A stretch of 12,968 nt of DNA from Promethearchaeati archaeon (GCA_013166835.1 JABLTI010000075.1:1-12968), one strand, 5' to 3'; positions 1,874 through 12,968 are shown, counted from the first letter of the stretch. A program made the numbers and translations. The notes: generated by a model from the sequence alone, not told the origin.

Positions 1874-3853
1874 ATGTCATATAAAGTAGGAATTGGAATG
1901 TATGATTGCACTGGTCCAGCTGCAGAACAAACTATGATAGGTTATTCAGCCTCTGAACAAAGAACCTCGGGAATTGCTGATAGGCAATGGGTTCGAGCTT
2001 TTATTATTAAGGATAAAAATAGTAACTATCTATGTATAGCAGTTGCCGATATAGGTATGGTTTTTCAATCAATCAAAAATGAAGTATTAAAGCGTTTACC
2101 AATGAAAATAATGAGTGTTTTAAAAACTGATAATATAATGCTAAGTGCAACACATACTCATTCTGGACCCGCGGGTTATTCATATTATCCTATTTTTAAT
2201 ATATCTAGCAAAGGTTTCTGTAAACAAACTTTCGATGCTATTGTTAATGGTTATGTTCAAGCAATTATTAGAGCCTGGAATAATATGAAACCAGCTAGTA
2301 TTTTTATCAATATAGGTGAGCTTTTGGATTGTGGAGGACAAAGGTCTCGAGAAGCTTGGGAAAGCAATCCACAAGAAGAAAGAGACAAATATGGTGATAC
2401 TGATAAATCAATAACATTATTGAAGATCATAGATGCTTCAGGGAAAGTATTTGGTATTATTGTTTTCTATGCATTACATTCAACTTCCATTGGATTAAAA
2501 AATCGATTAATATCTTCAGATAATAGAGGATACGCATCTAGATTTTTGGAACGAATGTTTGAAAACGATCCTTATAATAACAATCCAAATTTTATAGCTG
2601 CTTTTCCAAATGCTAATGGTGCTGATGTAAGTCCAAATGTTGGGCAAGGTCATCCTCCTGGTGGTGAAGAAGATTATAGAAGAATGAAAGTAATTGGTGA
2701 TAAATTAATTCAAAAAACACTACAAATGATGAATTCCGAAGCAGAAGAAATTTTAGGTGATATTAAATATGGTCAGATGAATGTTGATTTAGCGAATATA
2801 CAAATTAATGGTACTAACAGAAAAACGTGTGATGGAGCACTTGGAGCAAGCTTTACAGGTGCATCAAGTGAGGATAATTCATCTCCCGTACCATTATTTG
2901 TGGAAGGGTTGACTAAATCTGAATTCCTAAAAGGTGAGGTAGCTCGTAAATATTCATTTCGAAACAAAGTCCTAACATTCCTTTTTGATTTAATATGGCA
3001 CGATATGGATGATCCCGAGTGGGTAGAAGCTCAGGGTGAAAAACCCATTTTTATACCAGTTGGCAGAGCTAAGTTTCGAGGTACGCCCCTTTTTCCTCAT
3101 ATTTTTCCATTTCAGATTTTCAAATTAGGTTCTGTTAGCATTATCGGTTTTCCTGGTGAGATGACATCGATGGCAGGAATACGGTTAAAAAATAAAATAC
3201 TCAATGCATTCAAAAGAACAGAAGTAAAATATAGTATACTTAATTGTTATGCAAATTCATTCGCACATTATACAACTACAAAAGAAGAATATAATCAGCA
3301 ACATTATGAAGGTGCAAGTACCCTGTTTGGTCCAAATCAATTAGAAGCCATACAGCAAGAATATCAAAAATTAGCTGAAATGATAAGAGATAACGAAACT
3401 ATTCCTCTAGGTGCACCATTTCCGAGATTTTTAACCAGATTGAAACGATTCCATACTCGAGTAAAATTTGATGATGATCCAATGGGGAAAGATTATGGGG
3501 ATGTCTTAATTCAACCAAACTCAACATATAATTGCGAGGAAAAAGTGTTAGTGGAATTTATTGGGGCTAATCCTAGAAATAATCTTAGAACAATGGACAC
3601 ATATCTTGAAATTCAAAGAAAAACAAATAGTGATTGGGAAACGGTTTACAGAGATTTAGATTTTGAAACACAATTTCATTGGAAAAGAAAAGGGATTGCC
3701 CATTCGATTATAACTATTGTTTGGCATATTCCAAAAAATGAGAAACCTGGTGAATATAGAATTATACATGAAGGGGATTCAAAATCAAGGTGGACAAAGA
3801 AAATCACTCCTTACATAGGGATATCTAATACTTTTGAAGTATTAAAAAATTAA
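1874..3853 (+). CDS. Neutral/alkaline non-lysosomal ceramidase family protein
   Basis: 659 aa with family motifs SATHTHSGP, HSTS, SSDNRGYAS, ADVSPN, PGEMT and EEYNQQHYEGASTLFGP, plus a C-terminal Ig-like domain (GANPRNNL...PGEYRIIH). SD-like GGGTGA before the ATG. Confidence 0.93.
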   Translation: MSYKVGIGMYDCTGPAAEQTMIGYSASEQRTSGIADRQWVRAFIIKDKNSNYLCIAVADIGMVFQSIKNEVLKRLPMKIMSVLKTDNIMLSATHTHSGPAGYSYYPIFNISSKGFCKQTFDAIVNGYVQAIIRAWNNMKPASIFINIGELLDCGGQRSREAWESNPQEERDKYGDTDKSITLLKIIDASGKVFGIIVFYALHSTSIGLKNRLISSDNRGYASRFLERMFENDPYNNNPNFIAAFPNANGADVSPNVGQGHPPGGEEDYRRMKVIGDKLIQKTLQMMNSEAEEILGDIKYGQMNVDLANIQINGTNRKTCDGALGASFTGASSEDNSSPVPLFVEGLTKSEFLKGEVARKYSFRNKVLTFLFDLIWHDMDDPEWVEAQGEKPIFIPVGRAKFRGTPLFPHIFPFQIFKLGSVSIIGFPGEMTSMAGIRLKNKILNAFKRTEVKYSILNCYANSFAHYTTTKEEYNQQHYEGASTLFGPNQLEAIQQEYQKLAEMIRDNETIPLGAPFPRFLTRLKRFHTRVKFDDDPMGKDYGDVLIQPNSTYNCEEKVLVEFIGANPRNNLRTMDTYLEIQRKTNSDWETVYRDLDFETQFHWKRKGIAHSIITIVWHIPKNEKPGEYRIIHEGDSKSRWTKKITPYIGISNTFEVLKN

Positions 3854-3876: not shown

Positions 3877-3900
3877 TAGTGTGCCCGTGCGAATTCGAAC
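3877..3900 (-). repeat. tRNA 3'-end fragment, copy 1 (degenerate)
   Basis: + strand TAGTGTGCCCGTGCGAATTCGAAC; 19/24 identical to copy 3, with the same AAATAAT left flank. Confidence 0.75.
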
Positions 3901-3964
3901 CAACTATACTCAAAAAGTACTAACTATAATTTAAAAAAATAATCTTCTCTTGAAGAAAGAGAAA

Positions 3965-4111
3965 TCATCTTCTATTAATTTCTAATAATGGTTTCCCACA
4001 AATACTGCACTTATTATGACATTGACAATACACTCTTTGTGGATGATTCTGACAATATCTCACAGGTGGACAATATTTGAATAAATCTTTGACTATGCTT
4101 TTAATCATCAT
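3965..4111 (-). CDS. 48-aa Cys/His-rich putative zinc-binding microprotein (not in the ORF track)
   Basis: Manual translation MMIKSIVKDLFKYCPPVRYCQNHPQRVYCQCHNKCSICGKPLLEINRR*. It has CxxHP and CxxCGKPL knuckles, an SD-like GTGA just upstream and a TATA-like TTAAATAA on the minus strand near 4181-4188. Confidence 0.7.
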   Translation of the reverse strand: MMIKSIVKDLFKYCPPVRYCQNHPQRVYCQCHNKCSICGKPLLEINRR

Positions 4112-4245
4112 ATATCACATGTACGATATATAGCAAAAGAGATATATATGTCTTTTTGTTGCACTTATCTTTGATCAGAATTATTTAAGCTAATTTCAAG
4201 ATTTTATTCTCTAAGAAAATGAAATTTATTTTTTTAAAAAATGAT

Positions 4246-4269
4246 TGGTGGACCCGCGCGGATTCAAAC
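4246..4269 (-). repeat. tRNA 3'-end fragment, copy 2 (Ala-like)
   Basis: Minus strand G-TTTGAAT-CCGCG-CGGGTCC-A-CCA; 23/24 identical to copy 3. Confidence 0.9.
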
Positions 4270-4371
4270 TATGTCCTATTCAATTAACAGATGTATCATT
4301 ATTGATAACTCTACAGCAAATTAATATAGAAATACATTAATTGGAAGTAAAAAGAATAGAATGGTGAAGAA

Positions 4372-5256
4372 ATGAGTGAAAAAACTAAGAAGAAACTTGG
4401 TCTTATAGCTGATTCTTCATGTGATATTCCTATTACAACTATTGAAAAATATGATATAACTATAATATCTGTTAATGTTATTTTTGACAATGAGATAAGA
4501 ATACCATATGTTGATCTTACAACAGAACAAATCTTTGAAAAAATTGTAACGGAAAATGCAGTACCTACTACCGGTCTTCCACCACCTAAGAGATTCAAAG
4601 AAGCATTTAGCAAAGTGCTCGAAAAATACGAGGAAGTAATTTTTCTTACAGCTTCAAAAGACCTAAGTGGATTATGGGAAAATGCAGTAAAATATGCAAA
4701 AGAGATTGCAAATGATAAAATAACTGTTGTAGATACAAGAAATTCAATTCATCCATTTGGATTAATTGTATTGAAAACAGCAAGAATGATAGAAAATGGT
4801 CTAAGTAAAGAAGAGATCCTGAATAAGGTATCTAATGATCTAATACCTAAAGCTCGATTTGAAGCTTTTCTTGGTACATTGGAATTTTTGAAAAGATCCG
4901 GAAGAATACCTAATTTACAACATTTTATGGGCGAATTATTCCAATTCAAACCATGTTTGACAATAGAAGATGGTTTGGTTGCATCCCATGGAAAAGTCCG
5001 TGGTGAGAAAGCAAAAATGAAATATCTAAAAAATCTAGGAGAAAAAATTGTTAATTTTCTACCAGAAAATGAAACATTTGCAGTCATGCATTCAACTAAT
5101 ATGGAAAAAGCAATAGAACTAAAGGATTATCTTCATAAAGTATCAAACAAGGATTTAGAAATAGTAATTTGGGAAACAGGTCCAGCATCAAGTGTTCACC
5201 TAGGACCGGGATTACTTGGATTAGCATGGATTGGTCCAGCAGCTGAAGATTTATAG
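4372..5256 (+). CDS. degV: DegV family (FakB-like) fatty-acid-binding protein
   Basis: 294 aa with DegV signatures IADSSCDIP, PTTGLP, SKDLSG, VVDTR, LEFLKRSGRI, KPCLTIEDG, KVRG and HLGPG. Confidence 0.92.
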   Translation: MSEKTKKKLGLIADSSCDIPITTIEKYDITIISVNVIFDNEIRIPYVDLTTEQIFEKIVTENAVPTTGLPPPKRFKEAFSKVLEKYEEVIFLTASKDLSGLWENAVKYAKEIANDKITVVDTRNSIHPFGLIVLKTARMIENGLSKEEILNKVSNDLIPKARFEAFLGTLEFLKRSGRIPNLQHFMGELFQFKPCLTIEDGLVASHGKVRGEKAKMKYLKNLGEKIVNFLPENETFAVMHSTNMEKAIELKDYLHKVSNKDLEIVIWETGPASSVHLGPGLLGLAWIGPAAEDL

Positions 5257-5372
5257 AAAAAAAATCTATTTGCATATCGCATCCTTTCGTTCACCAAAAC
5301 TTGAATCAATAGCTACCAATAACTTAAGTTTAAGCATAATGATTATTAACTAATATTCTGCTTCACTAAGAC

Positions 5373-6248
5373 ATGACTCTAACTGAAGAAGAAGCTTACA
5401 AGATGTTCCTGAAAGCTGAATATGAAGAACATGCAGAAGAACGCTATTTTACTGTGTCCGATGGTTCGCAAATTAGAGTTTTGTTATCAAAAGCTCCTAA
5501 AGAAGAACACAATGAACTCACATTTGTATTAATTGCAGGTTGGAATACTGTTGTCTCTGGATGGGACGAAGTTCTACTTGAAGCAATGAAAGACTTCGAT
5601 GTAGTGTATATTGAAACAAGGGAAAAAGGTTCAAGTATTGTAGTTAAAAATGCTAAGTTTGATATGGATCGTTTTTCATCTGATATTCAAGAGGTAATTG
5701 AAGAATTACAAATTAATCAGAAGAAAATGGTACTCTTTTCTTCTTCATTGGGAACAATAGTTACAGCCCATTTACTTGGCAGTAAAAAACTCGAACCTTT
5801 TCTTACTTACTTTATAGGTCCAGTTCATAGATTTGAAACACCCAGGGGATCAAGATTCTATATGTATCTAGTACCCAACTGTTTTCTTACAATAACAAGA
5901 CCAATATGGAAATTGTGGATTCGAAAAAGAAAAAGTGAAGATCCCGAACAAGCTGCGAAATACATCCGTGCTCTAGAAGAAGCAGAAGTTAAGAAGTGGA
6001 GAGCTACTGCATATGCTAACGCATGGGTTGATTTTCTTGATATGTATGAAAAAATAAAGGTTAGGAATTATATTGTTGGTATGGAAAAGGACAAAATGCA
6101 TGAGAGAGAGATATCAATGAGAATTCATGAAGGAATGGAAAATTCAACTTACATTGATCTTGAAACCAACAAAAAAACACATTCAGCAGAAATGATCAAA
6201 GTTGTTAGGCAACATTTATCAGACATTAAAAAAGAGAAGCAGAAATAA
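5373..6248 (+). CDS. Alpha/beta-fold hydrolase (putative esterase/lipase)
   Basis: 291 aa. FVLIAGW oxyanion region, nucleophile elbow FSSSLG, candidate acid in EKDKMH and candidate His in KKTHS. Confidence 0.75.
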   Translation: MTLTEEEAYKMFLKAEYEEHAEERYFTVSDGSQIRVLLSKAPKEEHNELTFVLIAGWNTVVSGWDEVLLEAMKDFDVVYIETREKGSSIVVKNAKFDMDRFSSDIQEVIEELQINQKKMVLFSSSLGTIVTAHLLGSKKLEPFLTYFIGPVHRFETPRGSRFYMYLVPNCFLTITRPIWKLWIRKRKSEDPEQAAKYIRALEEAEVKKWRATAYANAWVDFLDMYEKIKVRNYIVGMEKDKMHEREISMRIHEGMENSTYIDLETNKKTHSAEMIKVVRQHLSDIKKEKQK

Positions 6249-6399
6249 AGTAGAAGCTGTTGAGTTAAGAGAATTTAACAATAATTTTGTCATCCATTAA
6301 TAATTGGGATTTATTTTTCCAAATTTGTTTTTAAGTCATACCTAGATGTTGAATAGTGATTATTAATCACAAACTTTTATTGTATAAAGACATTAGTAA

Positions 6400-6429
6400 T
6401 TGTAATATTACAACTATATTACAACTATA
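6400..6429. promoter_or_regulatory. 14-bp palindrome overlapping an 11-bp tandem duplication upstream of the plsY-like gene
   Basis: TTGTAATATTACAA (6400-6413) is a perfect palindrome. ATATTACAACT occurs twice (6405-6426), just before the SD AGGAG. Confidence 0.45.
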
Positions 6430-6442
6430 ATAGGAGATTTAG

Positions 6443-7111
6443 ATGTACCAATATTTTATTGCCCCAATTATAGGATTCCTCTTTGGTTCTATACCATTCT
6501 CATGGTTAATAGTCAAAATTGTTACTGGAAAAGATGTTCGTGAAGAAGGTTCTGGATCTGTTAGCACACGAAACACGATTCGAACAGCTGGATATTTCTG
6601 GGCTATCCTTACTGGTTCACTTGATATTACTAAAGGATTTCTTGCTGTATTTATCACAAGATTCTATTTAGCACCAACTGTAGCAATGGGTTCAGATGAT
6701 TTGTCCATATTATGTGCTGCTCTAGCAGGTATTGGAGCATTTACAGGTCATTTATGGATGCCTTGGATGAAATTTAAAGGAGGTAAGGGATTTGCTGTAT
6801 TATTAGGATCAATGATAGTTATTAATCCCTATGGGAACCTTGTTTGGGTGATATCTATTCTATTGTTTCTTGTTATTATCCGATATAGTTATCTAGCTGG
6901 TTTGGCTGCAACTATATCAGTTGCTATACTTGGTACATTCTTTTATATCTTCACAGTACCAAACATCTATTGGAGCTCATGGGCAGTAATAGTTCATGGG
7001 TGGGGAATTGTAATTATACTAGTTCTACGTTTAATTCCTGATTTTAAAGCTATGAGAAGAGGAGATATTAAACGCTGGAGTGGTGTGAAAGTTTCCCAAT
7101 GGACGAAATAA
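6443..7111 (+). CDS. plsY: PlsY family glycerol-3-phosphate acyltransferase-like membrane protein (divergent active-site motifs)
   Basis: 222 aa, multi-TM. Motifs GFLFGSIPFS, GKDVREEGSGS, LDITKG and GH...FKGGKGFA. Confidence 0.85.
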   Translation: MYQYFIAPIIGFLFGSIPFSWLIVKIVTGKDVREEGSGSVSTRNTIRTAGYFWAILTGSLDITKGFLAVFITRFYLAPTVAMGSDDLSILCAALAGIGAFTGHLWMPWMKFKGGKGFAVLLGSMIVINPYGNLVWVISILLFLVIIRYSYLAGLAATISVAILGTFFYIFTVPNIYWSSWAVIVHGWGIVIILVLRLIPDFKAMRRGDIKRWSGVKVSQWTK

Positions 7112-7119
7112 AAAATAAT

Positions 7120-7143
7120 TGGTGGACCCGCGCGGATTCGAAC
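7120..7143 (-). repeat. tRNA 3'-end fragment, copy 3 (Ala-like, intact)
   Basis: Minus strand G-TTCGAAT-CCGCG-CGGGTCC-A-CCA, starting 9 bp after the plsY stop. The 5' part of a tRNA is absent. Confidence 0.92.
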
Positions 7144-7224
7144 CATAGATTTTGTTTTCTCACACCAATATTAGGTTATCTTAACAAATTTAACTAGTGC
7201 CCCGAAAAAACTGGTATAAAAAAT

Positions 7225-8271
7225 CTATAAGAATATCTCTAATTTATCAAAAATTGTTGTATAATAGATTTCAATTATATTAGAGAATCTTTTATAAGAA
7301 TTAATATTTAGAGTAAAGAAATCAAGGTAATTCTTCTTTATCTTAGCATCAACATTCAAAGATTGAACTCTTCTTATGAAATTATCATTCAAAATCATAA
7401 TTATTCCTTCAATAGTTCTGATTGATGCTTTAGTTCTAATAATTACATAATCGATTAGCGAATATTTTGTTTTATAATATTTTTTCCGATCTTTTGATTT
7501 TTTTACAATTTCAACTGCATCAAATTTCACTAATTTTGTTAATGCTTCAGAAACAGTACTTCTACCATACTTGGTAAATTCGATTAGATAATCTTGAGTG
7601 ATTGGATTTGGCTCAATAACTAGTGCATGTGAAATTGCCGTTAACTCTCTGTTTCTGCCATATGCTGTTTGAGTTTCCATTGCATATTTTACAAAATCCT
7701 GTTTGATCTTTATTAGAGTATCAGCTTCAACAGGTTGTAAGTTCTTTGTGGTTTCTTTTACAAGATTCTCAAGATCCAAATTAGATCCTTTAAGTTCATT
7801 AGTAAGAGTTAACTTGAAATTGGGATTTTCTTGAAACTTTTCCCAAATAGTGTTAATGTCATCAGCTAACTCATTATAATAATAAGTGACTAGCAAATTT
7901 ATTCGAAGATATTTTTCCAAATGTCTTTTTTCAATTGAATCTTCTTTTATTGATTCCAGTCGGAATAGAAAAACAGGAATTGCTTTCAAATTAGAAATTG
8001 TCAATTGTATTGATTGCAATAGATAATATTTGATGTATTGATCAAAAGAAAAAGGACAGTAGTAGTAATTCTTCTTGGAATCTGGTTTTCTTGTTTGTAA
8101 GATAGGAAGACTAGTATTATCAATTAATATCTTCAACGTCTCAGATACAGCAGTTCGACTTAAACCTGTGAGTTCTATTATTTGATCTTGAGTCAAATAA
8201 TCTTGTTCCAAAAGAAGAGAATGCAAAACACAGACTGAATTTTCTTCATTCCATTTTAGGGATTGTTTCAT
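7225..8271 (-). CDS. Transcriptional regulator with two tandem GbsR/MarR-like winged-helix domains (start may be upstream at 8331)
   Basis: Internal duplication: LTQDQIIELTGLSRTAVSETLKIL...KPDSKKNYY versus ITQDYLIEFTKYGRSTVSEALTKL...KSKDRKKYY. Divergent from an ABC exporter operon. Confidence 0.82.
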   Translation of the reverse strand: MKQSLKWNEENSVCVLHSLLLEQDYLTQDQIIELTGLSRTAVSETLKILIDNTSLPILQTRKPDSKKNYYYCPFSFDQYIKYYLLQSIQLTISNLKAIPVFLFRLESIKEDSIEKRHLEKYLRINLLVTYYYNELADDINTIWEKFQENPNFKLTLTNELKGSNLDLENLVKETTKNLQPVEADTLIKIKQDFVKYAMETQTAYGRNRELTAISHALVIEPNPITQDYLIEFTKYGRSTVSEALTKLVKFDAVEIVKKSKDRKKYYKTKYSLIDYVIIRTKASIRTIEGIIMILNDNFIRRVQSLNVDAKIKKNYLDFFTLNINSYKRFSNIIEIYYTTIFDKLEIFL

Positions 8272-8391
8272 GAAATTAATGTAGTCAATCTTTAGCTGTT
8301 TTAATTCTTTATCCGATTTTTTTTCTGAAATTCTACAAACCTACCTTCAATATAATTACATTCTCCCTACTATTTAAAGAATTTTTCCAAG

Positions 8392-8438
8392 TTTTCGTTA
8401 TTTTCTGAATTTTCGCAAATTTCTGAAAACATTTATAT
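8392..8438 (+). promoter_or_regulatory. Tandem 18-bp operator-like repeat abutting a BRE/TATA-like promoter
   Basis: TTTTCG-ttat-TTTCTGAA (8392-8409) and TTTTCG-caaa-TTTCTGAA (8410-8427), then TTTATAT (8432-8438). A TATA-like TTTAAATA lies on the minus strand at about 8371-8378. Confidence 0.6.
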
Positions 8439-8509
8439 TCATAGTTAACACTTTAACAAATAGATGCTAGAAATAAGGATAGCATCATATAAATCTAGGA
8501 GAACTCGTA

Positions 8510-9448
8510 TTGAGTAATAAAACTCAAGATATCGTTCTAAATGTTACAAATCTAACAAAAATTTATGGTAGAAATATTTCATTGGGAAAATGGAATATTA
8601 GCAAGCGAGTTGTTGGAGCAGAGAAAGTATCCTTTGATGTAAAGAAAGGTGAAATTTTTGGTTTCTTGGGACCAAATGGTGCTGGAAAAACCACAACTAT
8701 TAGATCAATTCTTGACTACTTACATATCCAAGAGGGTAAGATAACTGTCTTCGGCTTTGATCATCATAAAGATGCTCTAGAAATTCGAAAGCGAATTGGT
8801 TATGTTCCTGGTGATCTCTCTCTCTATGAAGATTTCACTGGTTTAGAATTGATTAAATATTTTAATAAATTTAGACAGTATGATAATGATTTCTTGGAAG
8901 AGTTAAAATCTATCTTCAAAGTTGATTTATCGACGAAAGTCAAAATCCTTTCAAAGGGCAACCGACAACAAATTGGACTAATACTTGCATTAGCACCTAA
9001 ACCTGATTTTCTTATCTTTGATGAACCATCAGCAGGTTTAGATCCCTTGATTACAGCTCAATTTCATCGATTATTGAAACGATTAACAAAGGAAGGAATC
9101 ACTATTTTCCTAAGTTCTCATGACCTTTCCGAAGTGCAGAATATTTGTGATCGAGTTGGTATCATAAAGGATGGAAAAATGATTCTAGTTGAAGAAATGG
9201 AAAATCTAAAATCAAAATTTCTGCAGATTGTTGACGTTATTTTTGAAGGCGATAATGTACCATCAGATGACAAATTACTAGCATTAGAGACTATTATTGA
9301 TATTTCAGTTAGGAACACACATCACTTCAAGTTAAGGATAAAGGAAGATGTTAATGAAATTCTACAGTTTCTCTCATCTTTTTCAGTAAGCCGATTGGAA
9401 ATAAAAGACGCTTCTCTAGAAGAGATATTCTTACATTATTATGAATAG
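8510..9448 (+). CDS. ABC-2 type (multidrug exporter-like) transporter ATP-binding protein
   Basis: Walker A GPNGAGKTT, signature LSKGNRQ, Walker B LIFDEP, H-loop SSH. TTG start after AGGAG. Confidence 0.95.
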   Translation: MSNKTQDIVLNVTNLTKIYGRNISLGKWNISKRVVGAEKVSFDVKKGEIFGFLGPNGAGKTTTIRSILDYLHIQEGKITVFGFDHHKDALEIRKRIGYVPGDLSLYEDFTGLELIKYFNKFRQYDNDFLEELKSIFKVDLSTKVKILSKGNRQQIGLILALAPKPDFLIFDEPSAGLDPLITAQFHRLLKRLTKEGITIFLSSHDLSEVQNICDRVGIIKDGKMILVEEMENLKSKFLQIVDVIFEGDNVPSDDKLLALETIIDISVRNTHHFKLRIKEDVNEILQFLSSFSVSRLEIKDASLEEIFLHYYE

Positions 9449-9460
9449 GAGGATATCAAA

Positions 9461-10261
9461 TTGGTTAAAGTCATGTTAAAAGAAATGAGAAAGAAATTAT
9501 TATCAGGAATTCTTCCACCATTACTTGTCGTTCTTTTCGTACCAATGATTGCTAGTTTTTGGCCCACTTTCAAAGATCAGATTGCTGCTTTTCAGGAGCT
9601 TCTACAAAATCCTATATACATAGCTGTATTAGGACAACTTGGATTAGGCGACCTTTCATCATTTCAAGGATTTTACAATATGTACATTTTTGTTGTTTTG
9701 GAAATGGTTATGCTCTTCATCACAATAATAATTCCAGCAAGAATGATTACAACAGAGGTTGACAAGAGAACTTTAGATGTTACTCTAAGTTATCCAATTT
9801 CTAGGTGGCGATATCTATTGGAAAAATTTGGAGCTTATCTTATTTTCAATCTTCTATATCCAATACTAATGTTATCAGTAACGTTAATCTCTAACAAAAT
9901 TCTGAATGAGGAAATGAACTTTGTACTATTAACATATGGATTTATTGGATCGTGGTTACTTTTCTTTGCTTTAGGAGCAATTTCATTGCTTTGTGGTGCA
10001 ATTTTCCTTGAAGGTAAAAAAGCTATTACTGCTGCTGGTGGTATAATAGTTGGTATGTGGATTCTTGTGAGAATTGGAGGAATAGTTGAATCAGTCAATT
10101 TCTTGAAATATCTTTCCTTGTTCAATTATTTAAATACTGCAATAATCTTCTCTGAAGGTGTAATGCCATTAGATGAGCTATTTATCATTCTAGGAGTTGG
10201 CCTTGTTTCATTGTTTAGTGCACTAATCATTTTTGAAAAGAGAGAATTAGCTATTGTCTAA
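9461..10261 (+). CDS. ABC-2 type transporter permease subunit
   Basis: About six hydrophobic segments, EVDKRTLDVTLSYPISRWRYLLEK motif and FEKREL C-terminus; 12 bp after the ATPase with SD AGGAGG. Confidence 0.9.
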   Translation: MVKVMLKEMRKKLLSGILPPLLVVLFVPMIASFWPTFKDQIAAFQELLQNPIYIAVLGQLGLGDLSSFQGFYNMYIFVVLEMVMLFITIIIPARMITTEVDKRTLDVTLSYPISRWRYLLEKFGAYLIFNLLYPILMLSVTLISNKILNEEMNFVLLTYGFIGSWLLFFALGAISLLCGAIFLEGKKAITAAGGIIVGMWILVRIGGIVESVNFLKYLSLFNYLNTAIIFSEGVMPLDELFIILGVGLVSLFSALIIFEKRELAIV

Positions 10262-10328
10262 TTCTCTTAATTCATTTCTATCTATACTAGTTTTAGAAGT
10301 ACGATTTAAAATATAGAATAGAAATAAT

Positions 10329-10352
10329 TGGTGGGCCCTGCCGGATTCGAAA
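10329..10352 (-). repeat. tRNA 3'-end fragment, copy 4 (Ile/Val-like)
   Basis: Minus strand T-TTCGAAT-CCGGC-AGGGCCC-A-CCA; 22/24 identical to copy 5. Confidence 0.9.
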
Positions 10353-10508
10353 CAGCGTCTTTATAAAACTAATAACCAATGAAATATTTACTATAGATTT
10401 AAAGCAAATAGTGTGTAAATTTGTTTTTATTTTAGATTCCTTAAATAGAAAACACTTTTAAAAAATATCTCAAAAATGAACCCATTACCAATTAGGTGAT
10501 TAAATAAA

Positions 10509-11540
10509 ATGAACTATTTAGAAAATATCAAAGAAGTGTTGCGAAAATATCTATCTGATAAGAGAGATTCTGTATCACTGAGAATAGAAGACATTACTCA
10601 ATTTACTCAGGCTTTAGAAACTGAAATTTATTCTTTTTTAGAAATATTCACAATTGACAAAAAAGAGATTATAAGCAAACTAGTTTTACGGATGTATCCA
10701 AAAAGCTATCTAGGATTTGGGGTAAAACACGAATATAATATAATGCAAAACTTGTTAAAAGAAGGTTTTCAAGTTCCATCGGTACTTTTTTTTAATGAGA
10801 AAGAAGAAATTCTAGGAAAACCTTTCATGATTATGGAATTCATAGAAGGAGAAACATTAAATGATAAATTTTCTAAAGCTTCTCCAGATCAAATTCCAAA
10901 TCTAATGAAGCAATTTACTTCATTAATGGTTAATCTCCATAGTTTAGATTGGAAGAAGATTACTACCGGTAAAACTCAAATTGATATAAACAATCCTTAT
11001 TTTGCGACAGATTGTATTATTGATAATTTGTGTTCAATTACAGAGAAATTTAATAATAAAGAATATCAAGCTACAATTGAATGGCTTCAAGACCAAAAGG
11101 TAAATTATCCCGTTGAAAACTATTCTATTATCCACAAAGATTTCCATCCACTTAATATTATTGTCGCTGAAAATAATTCTTTATTTGTTATTGATTGGAG
11201 TCAAGCAAGAGTTTCAGATATACGAGATGACATTGCTCAAACATCTTTTCTATTTAATATATTTGGAGGTTCTCAACTAAATCCATTATTTTTCAAATAT
11301 TATGAAGACCTTTCGGGAAATTCAATAGGGGATTTAAAGTTTTACGAAGTCACTTCAGCTATTAGTTTACTCATATTTCTAACTTTACAAATTGGTAATT
11401 CCGATTTAAATGAAAATCAAGCTAAATTAATGAGTATTATTCAAATTCTAAATCCGATGTTACAAAGTGCTTATAATTATTTAATTGAAAGAACTAATAT
11501 TAGAATTCCTGAATTTGAAACAAAACTGGGATTGAAATGA
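10509..11540 (+). CDS. APH/choline-kinase-like phosphotransferase family protein
   Basis: LVLRMYP, HEY, MIMEFIEG, Brenner-type HKDFHPLN and VIDW motifs. SD-like AGGTGA upstream. Confidence 0.88.
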   Translation: MNYLENIKEVLRKYLSDKRDSVSLRIEDITQFTQALETEIYSFLEIFTIDKKEIISKLVLRMYPKSYLGFGVKHEYNIMQNLLKEGFQVPSVLFFNEKEEILGKPFMIMEFIEGETLNDKFSKASPDQIPNLMKQFTSLMVNLHSLDWKKITTGKTQIDINNPYFATDCIIDNLCSITEKFNNKEYQATIEWLQDQKVNYPVENYSIIHKDFHPLNIIVAENNSLFVIDWSQARVSDIRDDIAQTSFLFNIFGGSQLNPLFFKYYEDLSGNSIGDLKFYEVTSAISLLIFLTLQIGNSDLNENQAKLMSIIQILNPMLQSAYNYLIERTNIRIPEFETKLGLK

Positions 11541-11564
11541 AAAAAAGCTATCTTAGAAGCTAGT

Positions 11565-11588
11565 TGGTGGGCCCGGCCGGATTCGAAC
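11565..11588 (-). repeat. tRNA 3'-end fragment, copy 5 (Ile/Val-like, intact)
   Basis: Minus strand G-TTCGAAT-CCGGC-CGGGCCC-A-CCA, starting 25 bp after the phosphotransferase stop. Confidence 0.92.
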
Positions 11589-11690
11589 ACCTTTGGTAGA
11601 ATCATTAACATAGATATTTTTCCTAGACTAATAATAATCCCCTTATATTTACTACCGAAGTTGATTATAGAAATTAATGGAGACTGAACT

Positions 11691-12857
11691 TTGAACTTTA
11701 ATAGAAGTAAATCAGCTTTTCTACGATTTCTTACAATAGCTACTATCTTGGGTTTAATTATAGTTCCTAATGTTTTAGATACAAAATCGGAAACTGAATC
11801 AGATTATTTTCCAAAACCAAGATATGGGCATAATTTAGTCTACATTCCAACTGATGGTTCTATCTATCTTTATGGTGGAGATTATGGTTATCAATCAGGT
11901 GTACTACTTAAATCTCTTTGGCGTTTTAATCTAACATCAAGATTGTGGACTGAGATAGCGAGTGATATTGGTCCTCCATCAACAGAAAATTCTGGTTTTG
12001 TATACGATTCAAATAATAATCAATTGGTTCTCTATGGTGGTTTTAAAACTGATAATTACGATATGTTAGCAGATGTTTGGACATTTAATTTAGATGCACA
12101 GAACTGGACTGAACATTCCTTAGTTGTAAAACCGGATTCAAGAAGTGATTCAAGTTTCTATTATGATCCAAAAATTGATGGTTGTGTCTTGTATGGTGGC
12201 TATGCTGAAAATGATACACTTCTCTCTGATACTTGGATTTTCTTTACAAGCAATAACTCATGGTCAGAAATTATTACCACAAGTCCTGGATCAAGATATG
12301 GTCAACATATGGTCTATAATCCCCATGATGAAGTGGGATTGATGTTTGGAGGAAGAACTACTACATATACTGATGAAACTTGGCAATTCAATACAAGTGA
12401 TATGACGTGGTCTCAAATAATAACTGCTCATATGCCAACTAAAAGATACTGGTACTCCTATGCCATTGCTGAAGAAAGAAATGAATTCTATATCTTTAGT
12501 GGAAGAAATGATGGTTATCCAGATAGTGCAATTGGACATCTTGCTACTTACAATCTGATATCACAAGATTGGAATCAAACAATTTCAGCTGGTGAACCTA
12601 GTTCACGATTCATGTCGAGTATGGTTTATCACGAAGAATTTGATTGCCTATTCCTATTTAGTGGTACAAAAGGCTTCAACTCATATTTATACAACGATTA
12701 TTGGCTTTATCATATAAGTAATAAAACTTGGACCAGTTTTATACCAAATACTCCAACTGTTAATGCTAGCTTCGATAAGATGATAATTTCATCGACAATT
12801 ACACTTGCTTTTCTCTGTATCACAATTGTATATAAGAAGAAGAAGAAGAATAAATGA
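11691..12857 (+). CDS. Secreted, membrane-anchored Kelch-repeat beta-propeller protein
   Basis: Six repeats of the form P..R..H/S...Y......lyGG....d.W.f......W, with an N-terminal signal peptide and a C-terminal TM helix followed by KKKKKNK. Confidence 0.88.
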   Translation: MNFNRSKSAFLRFLTIATILGLIIVPNVLDTKSETESDYFPKPRYGHNLVYIPTDGSIYLYGGDYGYQSGVLLKSLWRFNLTSRLWTEIASDIGPPSTENSGFVYDSNNNQLVLYGGFKTDNYDMLADVWTFNLDAQNWTEHSLVVKPDSRSDSSFYYDPKIDGCVLYGGYAENDTLLSDTWIFFTSNNSWSEIITTSPGSRYGQHMVYNPHDEVGLMFGGRTTTYTDETWQFNTSDMTWSQIITAHMPTKRYWYSYAIAEERNEFYIFSGRNDGYPDSAIGHLATYNLISQDWNQTISAGEPSSRFMSSMVYHEEFDCLFLFSGTKGFNSYLYNDYWLYHISNKTWTSFIPNTPTVNASFDKMIISSTITLAFLCITIVYKKKKKNK

Positions 12858-12957
12858 TAGGCTATAACCTATTACACTTTCTTTTTTTTAAAACAATTCA
12901 TGTGGATTTCTTTTTTGTACAAAAATATTGAAGATGGAATTGAATAGAGAAATGAAT

Positions 12958-12968
12958 TGGTGGGCCCG
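12958..12968 (-). repeat. tRNA 3'-end, copy 6 (cut by the window edge; another fragment or the end of an intact tRNA gene)
   Basis: + strand TGGTGGGCCCG, 11/11 identical to the start of copy 5, with a similar AAATGAAT flank. Confidence 0.8.

Follow-up and report, generated by a model that had tools for sequence, protein, structure and literature searches.

An array of small, recombinase-free gene cassettes bounded by tRNA-Ile 3'-end fragments in a Heimdallarchaeota-type archaeon

We report that a 12,968-nucleotide stretch of archaeal DNA (the window; Promethearchaeati archaeon, JABLTI010000075.1) carries a ceramidase gene followed by five small modules of accessory genes, here called cassettes, which are separated by co-oriented copies of a 24-nucleotide sequence (the 24-mer) matching the 3' end of tRNA-Ile. 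The window is the entire contig C203 of G000, the draft genome of a Heimdallarchaeota-type archaeon (3.56 Mb in 260 contigs, 33.7% G+C, completeness 85%, contamination 6.8%). The genus set comprised 11 genomes (G000 and ten others; G002-G010 are congeneric) and DNA matches were sought in 40 relatives; L-numbers denote fetched loci or contigs and X-numbers sequencing runs. All run data (X2, X5, X6 and X9) were Logan contigs, and stretches of the window uncovered in X9 were not taken as evidence of absence.

Repeats and cassettes of the window

A first-pass annotation of the sequence had listed six direct repeats and read them as the punctuation of an integron-like array. Searching the window and the genome with its consensus, allowing up to three mismatches, returned four of the six (R2 to R5, Table 1), all on the plus strand, and 0 of 200 dinucleotide-preserving shuffles of the sequence gave any match. 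The remaining two are also in place: R1 is degenerate and lies beyond the three-mismatch search, and R6 is an 11-letter remnant at the end of the contig. As annotated, all copies are intergenic and co-oriented, with spacings of 369, 2874, 3209, 1236 and 1393 bp; the distances from stop codon to repeat are 24 nt for the ceramidase gene, 9 for PlsY, 68 for ABC-2, 25 for APH and 101 for Kelch.

The reverse complement of the 24-mer equals tRNA positions 53-76, that is G53, the T-loop, the 3' strand of the T-stem, the 3' strand of the acceptor stem, A73 and CCA, and the intact tRNA-Ile(GAU) genes of relatives end identically, in agreement with the annotated tRNA origin. The T-stem partner strand is absent at every copy and the copies are therefore fragments of a tRNA, not genes; no tRNA was detected in the window with ARAGORN (with and without introns) or with Rfam at E≤10. 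Rather than being scattered without a link to tRNA loci, four of the eight matches in the 3.56 Mb genome (at most three mismatches) lie in the window, and in the relatives the copies are found downstream of tRNA genes. With these eight matches, a genome-wide repeat resembling repetitive extragenic palindromic sequences or miniature inverted-repeat transposable elements was rejected.

We regard it as very improbable that the 24-mers are host RNA or DNA signals, such as halves of split or permuted tRNAs, processing or termination signals, or sequences akin to primer-binding sites. The tRNA genes of G000 are often interrupted and the plus-strand motif is complementary to a tRNA 3' end, as is a retroelement primer-binding site, and both points would suit such a signal. 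Against it, the genome holds no matching 5' halves (a genome search for 5' halves pairing with the acceptor strands of the fragments gave none with a D-arm, and split or permuted tRNAs were discarded), there is no Rfam family at the repeats, and all five repeat regions, examined for attC-like folding, fold no better than shuffles (z between +0.56 and +1.37). Moreover, the orientation of the repeats relative to the neighbouring genes is mixed, and they always lie downstream of, and co-oriented with, the matching tRNA gene.

The tRNA genes of G000 encode CCA, often carry introns and are archaeal in style. Only 26 matches to the Rfam tRNA model exceed the cut-off, ARAGORN predicts 17-22 tRNA genes, and AT-rich non-tRNA sequence lies upstream of several ends composed of T-arm plus acceptor strand (e.g. 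C200:33113 and C152:7749). The low counts and the AT-rich upstream sequence suggest that many tRNA genes of this genome are interrupted.

The assembly of the window is sound. One X2 contig spans 5523-12968 without any difference, contigs of X5 and X6 (another study) bridge the repeats at 7120, 10329 and 11565, and the Logan contigs of X2, which is the probable source run, and of the other study cross the repeats at at least 99% identity. On the minus strand at 7090-7173 and 10299-10382, a stretch of 6-7 nt, located ~45 nt into the adjacent cassette, is able to base-pair with the CCACCAAT end of the repeat (two of five repeats), which may be chance.

Table 1 Repeats, cassettes and flanking gene of the window; for repeats, the strand is that of the tRNA sense
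Feature	Coordinates	Strand	Description
Ceramidase gene, neutral/alkaline	1874-3853	+	Pfam PF04734 and PF17048; conserved flank in the chromosome, bordering the array on the side away from the tRNA
R1 repeat	3877-3900	-	tRNA-Ile 3'-end fragment farthest from the tRNA and most degenerate; differs from R5 at 5 of 24 letters
Micro cassette	3901-4245	-	48-aa Cys-rich open reading frame at 3965-4111, minus strand
R2 repeat	4246-4269	-	1 mismatch to consensus; rare A7 common to the repeat left of the G003 DegV cassette
DegV-hydrolase-PlsY cassette	4270-7119	+	DegV/FakB-like 4372-5256; alpha/beta-hydrolase or esterase 5373-6248; PlsY 6443-7111
R3 repeat	7120-7143	-	0 mismatches to consensus
Regulator-ABC cassette	7144-10328	mixed	Double winged-helix regulator 7225-8271 (-); ABC ATPase 8510-9448 (+); ABC-2 permease 9461-10261 (+); Pfam
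R4 repeat	10329-10352	-	2 mismatches to consensus; rare T11 and A24 recur left of the APH cassette in L039
APH cassette	10353-11564	+	APH-family phosphotransferase 10509-11540; Pfam
R5 repeat	11565-11588	-	Equals consensus
Kelch cassette	11589-12957	+	Kelch-repeat propeller protein 11691-12857; Pfam
R6 repeat	12958-12968	-	Truncated by contig end; 11 letters identical to the start of R5

The annotated contents of the modules were recovered, with Pfam recognising DegV, PlsY, the regulator, the ABC exporter, APH and Kelch, and the open reading frame (ORF) of the 48-aa microprotein is present; the hydrolase or esterase (291 aa) was assigned by NCBIfam and PHROGs only. Cassettes are compact and their ORFs intact. 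In total 27 modules were considered (five from the window, ten from further G000 arrays and 12 from relatives), with sizes of 337-3185 bp and a median of 1288 bp. Besides the genes in Table 1 they carry a GNAT acetyltransferase, a thiamine pyrophosphate enzyme, LVIVD-repeat and beta-helix proteins, SnoaL-like, VIT1 and CBS proteins, a pyridoxal phosphate enzyme, a methyltransferase, a NIPA transporter, an ATC-hydrolase-like protein, a beta-lactamase-fold hydrolase, a PmbA/TldD pair, another DegV, an S41 peptidase and a Fer4 protein; the cargo is thus made up of ordinary accessory enzymes and transporters. Gene orientation is mixed in the window and on contigs C224 and C231 of G000, and the DegV, APH and Kelch genes are preceded by 100-180 nt of upstream sequence of their own.

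The cassettes differ in their distribution. The micro cassette is conserved in G003, G002 and L039, at other positions, and the DegV cassette is 93% identical to that of G003 and 91-92% identical to that of G007. Its PlsY (G3P_acyltransf) is a second copy, the protein being 72% identical to the core PlsY of the same genome (G000:C130:4250-4927), and among the matches listed elsewhere, PlsY is found at 67-72% DNA identity in eight other genomes of the genus and in G011. A homologue of the regulator-ABC cassette, 72-75% identical, is present in G010 (C8; L020) at a site without such tRNA-type repeats. On both sides of that homologue (~8020-8420 and ~10880-11240) lies a direct repeat of ~350 nt, which resembles the ends of tandemly duplicated genes. 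The Kelch cassette has no DNA match among those listed for the 40 relatives, and the first scan of the genome contigs with the Kelch protein gave no match; a Kelch gene near the array on G009:C26 was rejected as the same cassette, being only 29% identical. A search with the APH protein returned relatives at 95% and 82% and the next at 30%, and a donor cannot be named.

The tRNA-Ile locus and cassette order in relatives

Co-oriented repeat pairs on one contig were found by pattern search in eight of the ten other genomes of the genus, seven of them of tRNA-Ile and the eighth (G007:C89) of another tRNA type. Nine such loci were fetched and seven of these include the tRNA-proximal end (L011, L012, L013, L015, L016, L017 and L019); all seven show an intact or near-intact tRNA-Ile 3' end together with a tRNA body. 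Specifically, ARAGORN predicts tRNA-Ile(GAT) with a 31-nt intron in L011, L015 and L019, and the 3' end of the gene is the 24-mer; an equivalent tRNA-Ile gene, mislabelled by ARAGORN, is present in L013 and in L039, a 6.6-kb metagenome contig found with the APH protein. One or two fragments lie 0.3-2.7 kb downstream of tRNA-Ile in L011, L012, L013, L015 and L016, and L018 has two fragment copies.

ARAGORN returned no tRNA in L017 or L012. In L017 (G007:C174, oriented positions 1284-1410) the tRNA-Ile is normal from the D-arm to the 3' end and its 5' acceptor strand is replaced by other sequence, and in L012 (G005:C61, oriented positions 12201-12260) the T-arm looks interrupted; these anomalies could be non-canonical introns or damaged genes.

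ORF clustering revealed a conserved frame around a variable stretch. On the distal side it comprises an ATP-grasp gene and a 600-aa gene, joined in some genomes of the genus by the ceramidase gene, and on the tRNA 5' side two Ras-family GTPases, an OST3-like gene, thioredoxin and further genes. At L011:10870-12207 and in the counterparts in L012, L013, L015 and L017, the Ras-family small GTPase genes are in tandem and are accompanied by OST3/OST6-like and thioredoxin genes. The variable stretch itself, enclosed by the distal flank and the tRNA, differs among the genomes, with one or two tRNA-Ile fragments dividing it. It is likely that the window represents the ceramidase-side flank and five modules of the region downstream of a chromosomal tRNA-Ile(GAU) gene. 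The ceramidase gene has 90% DNA identity to G003 and 83% to G005 at the same position, and R1 is the positional counterpart of the G003 fragment adjoining the ceramidase gene; no such locus is present on contig L023, whose ceramidase is 74% identical. At the other end, the X2 Logan contig extends 1747 nt beyond the window, and contig C113 of G000, the conserved Ras-side flank that is found past the tRNA gene in relatives, begins ~1.5 kb beyond the expected tRNA position. Because of this, R6 probably belongs to the intact tRNA-Ile(GAU) gene itself, as its 3' end.

The order of the cassettes varies. In G000 it is ceramidase, repeat, micro, repeat, DegV-hydrolase-PlsY, repeat, regulator-ABC-ABC2, repeat, APH, repeat, Kelch and the repeat that may be the tRNA; in G003 it is ceramidase, repeat, DegV-hydrolase-PlsY, repeat, micro and tRNA-Ile; in G007 the hydrolase-PlsY end of that cassette directly adjoins tRNA-Ile; G002 has micro, repeat and DegV; and L039 has an ABC2-like gene, repeat, FAD oxidoreductase, repeat, micro, repeat, APH, tRNA-Ile and then the Ras-side flank. 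The micro, DegV-hydrolase-PlsY and APH cassettes thus occur in four arrangements (G000, G003, G007 and L039), and in every comparison among these the homology extends to the 24-mer and ends there. The comparison of relatives for gain, loss or reordering, as proposed in the first-pass annotation, therefore gave differing orders with breakpoints at the 24-mer, not a conserved order running across the repeats. Judged by these alignments, the modules behave as discrete, permutable units.

On the tRNA side, L039 and G003 have flanks of 98.7% identity and yet micro is the only cassette common to both; the APH cassettes of G000 and L039 agree at 96% identity (across 10322-11588), against 90% for the flanks of G000 and G003. 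Sequence divergence is therefore slower than the change in cassette content, and the APH cassette, at least, seems to have been shared more recently than its chromosomal surroundings. Within the X2 data, one contig runs through PlsY and the repeat and departs from the window right after 7145, and others join the window just before 7112 and 4358, a faint sign that co-occurring strains differ at repeat borders. A joint leading back from 10351 to 3933, with the topology of a circle junction, was set aside since its micro part is only ~90% identical, and was read as the arrangement of a relative; two joints that skip modules (7145 to 10320 and 9111 to 11813) have sides of 25 and 24 letters, below 30, and were not counted.

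Fragments are also present at other tRNA genes. In G000, co-oriented fragments lie downstream of tRNA-Pro (two, C231), tRNA-Leu (one, C189) and tRNA-Asn (one, C156), and the short contigs C20, C93 and C224 each hold two to four copies of the end of another tRNA type; these arrays are all co-oriented and hold accessory enzymes, and their repeats extend over at least the entire T-arm. G000:C93 shares a SnoaL cassette, at 85% DNA identity, with the array on G009:C26, where the tRNA end and the neighbours are different. Many such arrays sit on contigs of 3-6 kb, as would be expected if strain variation breaks the assembly. At G000:C20:2458-2535, one strand carries two unlike tRNA-type 3' ends separated by 26 nt, and upstream of both a recognisable tRNA body is missing. 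Outside the genus, the contigs returned by a class-wide pattern search mostly had a single tRNA end each. Co-oriented and near-identical tRNA-type ends lie 3.15 kb apart in another family of the class (G038:C84:29551/32705 and G050:C59:2139/5291), and these pairs may be similar arrays.

Sites, recombinases and the movement of cassettes

Our data make it probable that the cassettes move by site-specific recombination at tRNA-mimic sites, catalysed in trans. A cassette would consist of one to three accessory genes and one 24-bp site copying the tRNA from T-loop to CCA, the site having at some point been acquired by a gene, and would be transiently circular. A recombinase encoded outside the cassettes would join the cassette site to the tRNA 3' end or to a resident site, leaving the tRNA undamaged; repeated insertion would build the array with the newest cassette adjoining the tRNA, and recombination between any two sites would remove or move cassettes. 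The tRNA end would thus play the role of attI and the 24-mer that of attC.

The comparison of 14 fragments bears on this. Positions 1-5 (TGGTG) and 15-24 (GGATTCGAAC) are nearly invariant and the middle is variable, and the homology to the tRNA stops in all 14 at one point, G53, the last letter of the 24-mer. Position 20, in the T-loop palindrome TTCGAA, is C in 14 of 14 fragments, whereas T occupies this position in four of six resident tRNA-Ile genes. Mere displacement of the resident tRNA's end therefore does not account for the fragments, whose T-loop side would come from elsewhere, most simply from the incoming cassette. Moreover, rare letters recur with particular cassettes: in G000 as well as L039, T11 and A24 occur in the repeat distal to the APH cassette, and A7 marks the repeat distal to the DegV cassette in G000 and in G003. 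The larger part of a repeat therefore remains attached to the cassette lying tRNA-proximal to it; a cassette seems to be a body with one site at its tRNA-distal end, so that each brings its own tRNA-mimic site, and the crossover, for the same reason, probably lies toward the CCA or trailer end of the 24-mer. Counted against the proximal copy, mismatches run 5, 4, 3, 2 and 0 from the distal to the tRNA end, and these five values agree with insertion at the tRNA end and an order by age.

These letters are also relevant to the idea that a few old integrations made the repeats, and that the 24-mers and their flanks now serve as homology anchors for the swapping of modules by homologous recombination or gene conversion after DNA uptake. 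We consider this improbable. No recombinase for the sites was found in G000, repeats beside the same module differ between genomes as if halves were often exchanged, and module exchange by homologous recombination between tandem integrated elements is mentioned in the cited part of the review PMC8371274, all of which would fit. New repeat copies cannot arise in this way, whereas every distinct cassette comes with a repeat, and rare letters, of its own; in addition, 24 bp with two to five mismatches is a very short and imperfect anchor, and the tRNA homology of all 14 fragments stops at the same end.

With respect to the enzyme, no integrase, recombinase or transposase domain was found in the 33 ORFs of 24 of the 27 modules (Pfam, E≤0.001), which upholds the annotation of the cassettes as integrase-less; the remaining three modules, which the scan did not include, are the two micro cassettes in G000 and G003 and the DegV module as found in G003. 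Seven of the 33 ORFs have no Pfam family, and in five of these seven PHROGs gave no integrase match.

It might be argued that the modules are worn remains of integrase-bearing viruses, plasmids or islands that were stacked at tRNA-Ile and never moved as small units. According to the cited part of PMC6563490, tandem arrays through re-use of att sites are known in archaeal and bacterial elements, and PMC8813620, in the part cited, reports integration of large elements at tRNA sites in Heimdallarchaeum. Integrases circulate in the genus (0-6 PF00589 matches per relative genome), and decay would explain the degenerate distal repeats and the one G005 module that has no distal repeat. We nevertheless find it unlikely, since the 33 ORFs of 24 modules include no recombinase or mobile-element hallmark gene, the modules are compact with intact ORFs (median of 1288 bp, n=27), the same small modules recur in new orders that break at the repeats, a pattern that deletion by itself does not yield, and the T-loop letter of the 14 fragments is absent from most resident tRNAs.

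Returning to recombination in trans, a possible enzyme was looked for in the genome of the window, the genus and viral sequences. The PF00589 match in G000, a 352-aa XerA-like protein (C61; L021:934-1992), matches the archaeal XerA model NF040815 at 117 bits, below the 220-bit cut-off, and carries an additional Cys/His-rich segment that separates its N-terminal domain from the catalytic one. Six of the 11 genomes of the genus each have one counterpart, with an open frame of 351-360 aa. As a guess, the XerA-like protein is our candidate for an enzyme acting in trans. In the tRNA-Ile variable region, the scanned modules of eight relatives contained no integrase, and seven loci around other integrases of the genus had no tRNA-end repeat pairs. 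IMG/VR was scanned twice with the 24-mer, giving 15 and 0 contigs and no related element; the 15 contigs were rejected as helpers, as they hold intact tRNA genes (13 called tRNA-Met(CAT)) in DNA of 45-71% G+C and are unrelated to the lineage of the window.

Several observations weigh against the proposed mechanism. The XerA-like protein is the single PF00589 match in G000, a genome that is 85% complete, it is encoded on another contig, and PF16795 and PF00239 have no match in this genome. The intact tRNA-Ile of G000 is absent from the assembly, G006 has tRNA-Ile yet no fragment at up to seven mismatches, and the FAD-oxidoreductase gene of G005, a bounded cassette in L039, lacks a distal repeat at up to ten mismatches. 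The mismatch gradient could stem from different source sites and not from age. Circular cassettes, as suggested in the first-pass annotation, were sought in public Logan contigs, and these contain no circular junction or clean excision joint. Furthermore, the CCA-side half of the G008 and G010 fragments resembles the resident tRNA, a hint that the crossover may lie within the 24-mer and not at its end, and the repeat adjoining PlsY differs strongly among G000, G003 and G007, so that the sites change faster than the simple model predicts. Repeated exchanges between sites would give mosaic repeats like those in G008, in G010 and on the PlsY side.

Relation to known systems and significance

Integration at tRNA genes is textbook knowledge, and the tRNA-gene islands and integrative elements treated by Williams in 2002 reportedly use a tyrosine integrase with crossover in or near the T-loop. 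The arrays resemble such islands in having a displaced, co-oriented 3' tRNA fragment at the far end, an intact tRNA at the near end and stacked inserts; a fragment downstream of an intact tRNA is seen in the relatives and in L039, and would apply to the window by extension. An element-encoded integrase beside the att site was not found in the 33 module ORFs, five unannotated ones being PHROGs-negative as well. Unlike islands, the inserts have no integrase or hallmark genes, measure 0.34-3.2 kb, carry single accessory enzymes and are permuted in order. Tandem arrays of integrative elements formed by re-use of a site are described in the cited part of PMC6563490, where the smallest thaumarchaeal cryptic element quoted is 2.6 kb with its integrase included. 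For Candidatus Heimdallarchaeum, the part of PMC8813620 cited here describes aloposons, HeimV1 and CRISPR-Cas operons at tRNA sites; these come from the same class of archaea and likewise use tRNA genes as integration sites, but are large, with giant or viral genes, and HeimV1 has its own integrase (PMC8813620).

Integrons have also been reported in archaeal metagenome genomes (PMC9668308, in the part cited). The first-pass comparison with integrons holds by analogy of function: the cassettes are small, mostly with one gene and with one site distal to the docking site, the array would grow at a fixed dock with the newest cassette beside it (APH adjoins the tRNA in L039), the units are permutable with four arrangements, and the cargo is accessory (acetyltransferase, SnoaL-like, methyltransferase, hydrolase). 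The comparison fails on an adjacent intI, on attC hairpins and on a common promoter. No integrase gene lies beside the array, whose flanks are ceramidase on one side and Ras GTPases, OST3-like and thioredoxin genes on the other, with the PF00589 match of G000 on C61; in place of variable attC sites folding as single strands there is a sequence-conserved tRNA mimic that lacks the T-stem partner strand and does not fold into a hairpin; and instead of promoterless, co-oriented cassettes, the genes have mixed orientation and upstream regions of their own, which imply no common promoter.

A further comparison is with Xer-dependent modules, namely the integrative mobile elements exploiting Xer (IMEX) and the pdif/dif modules of Acinetobacter plasmids (PMC13141974, PMC6449649 and PMC12907356, in the parts cited). 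These lack a recombinase, are bounded by short copies of a host site and are shuffled between replicons by the host tyrosine recombinase in trans. The array shares with them small accessory modules devoid of a recombinase, borders made of short site copies and the presence of a host Xer, here the XerA-like gene; it differs in that its sites copy a tRNA 3' end and not dif, are direct and not alternately inverted, and are chromosomal and tRNA-anchored. Cis-mobilizable elements (CIMEs) are integrase-less DNA between the att sites of an integrative and conjugative element, and are thought to be moved by the integrase of a helper. They are alike in being integrase-less DNA between two att-like sites at a tRNA-type locus. 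Unlike CIMEs, the array comprises many independent cassettes at several tRNA genes, and no helper with a cognate integrase at the same att site was found at nine congeneric loci or in IMG/VR. The array, then, appears to belong to neither integrons nor Xer-dependent dif modules, though functionally it is like both. The cited parts of PMC8813620, PMC9897764, PMC6563490, PMC11529989 and PMC8371274 contain no description of arrays of small integrase-less cassettes at tRNA ends, and their supplements may list such loci. The new aspect is the tiny integrase-less cassette with a tRNA-mimic site, present at several tRNA genes and changing its order between close relatives.

On a broader view, which we put forward tentatively and think somewhat doubtful, these arrays might reflect a dedicated cassette capture of Heimdallarchaeia, independent of integrons, with several tRNA ends as docks, 24-bp sites borne by the cassettes and one chromosomal enzyme acting in trans, perhaps the XerA-like protein, spreading accessory genes, including DegV/FakB-like-esterase-PlsY, between lineages. 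If confirmed, the movement of cassettes at tRNA ends would be a second, independent solution to the task of integrons, and would provide a short and well-defined recombination site for which an enzyme could be sought. The presence of bacterial-type lipid genes on one cassette bears on how such genes spread among these archaea, and bacterial-type acyl-phosphate lipid genes on a mobile-looking unit may bear on the question of the lipid divide. Finally, the mechanism, if confirmed, would suggest a concrete path, open to testing, for the extensive gene flow of Heimdallarchaeia, which are the closest group to eukaryotes.

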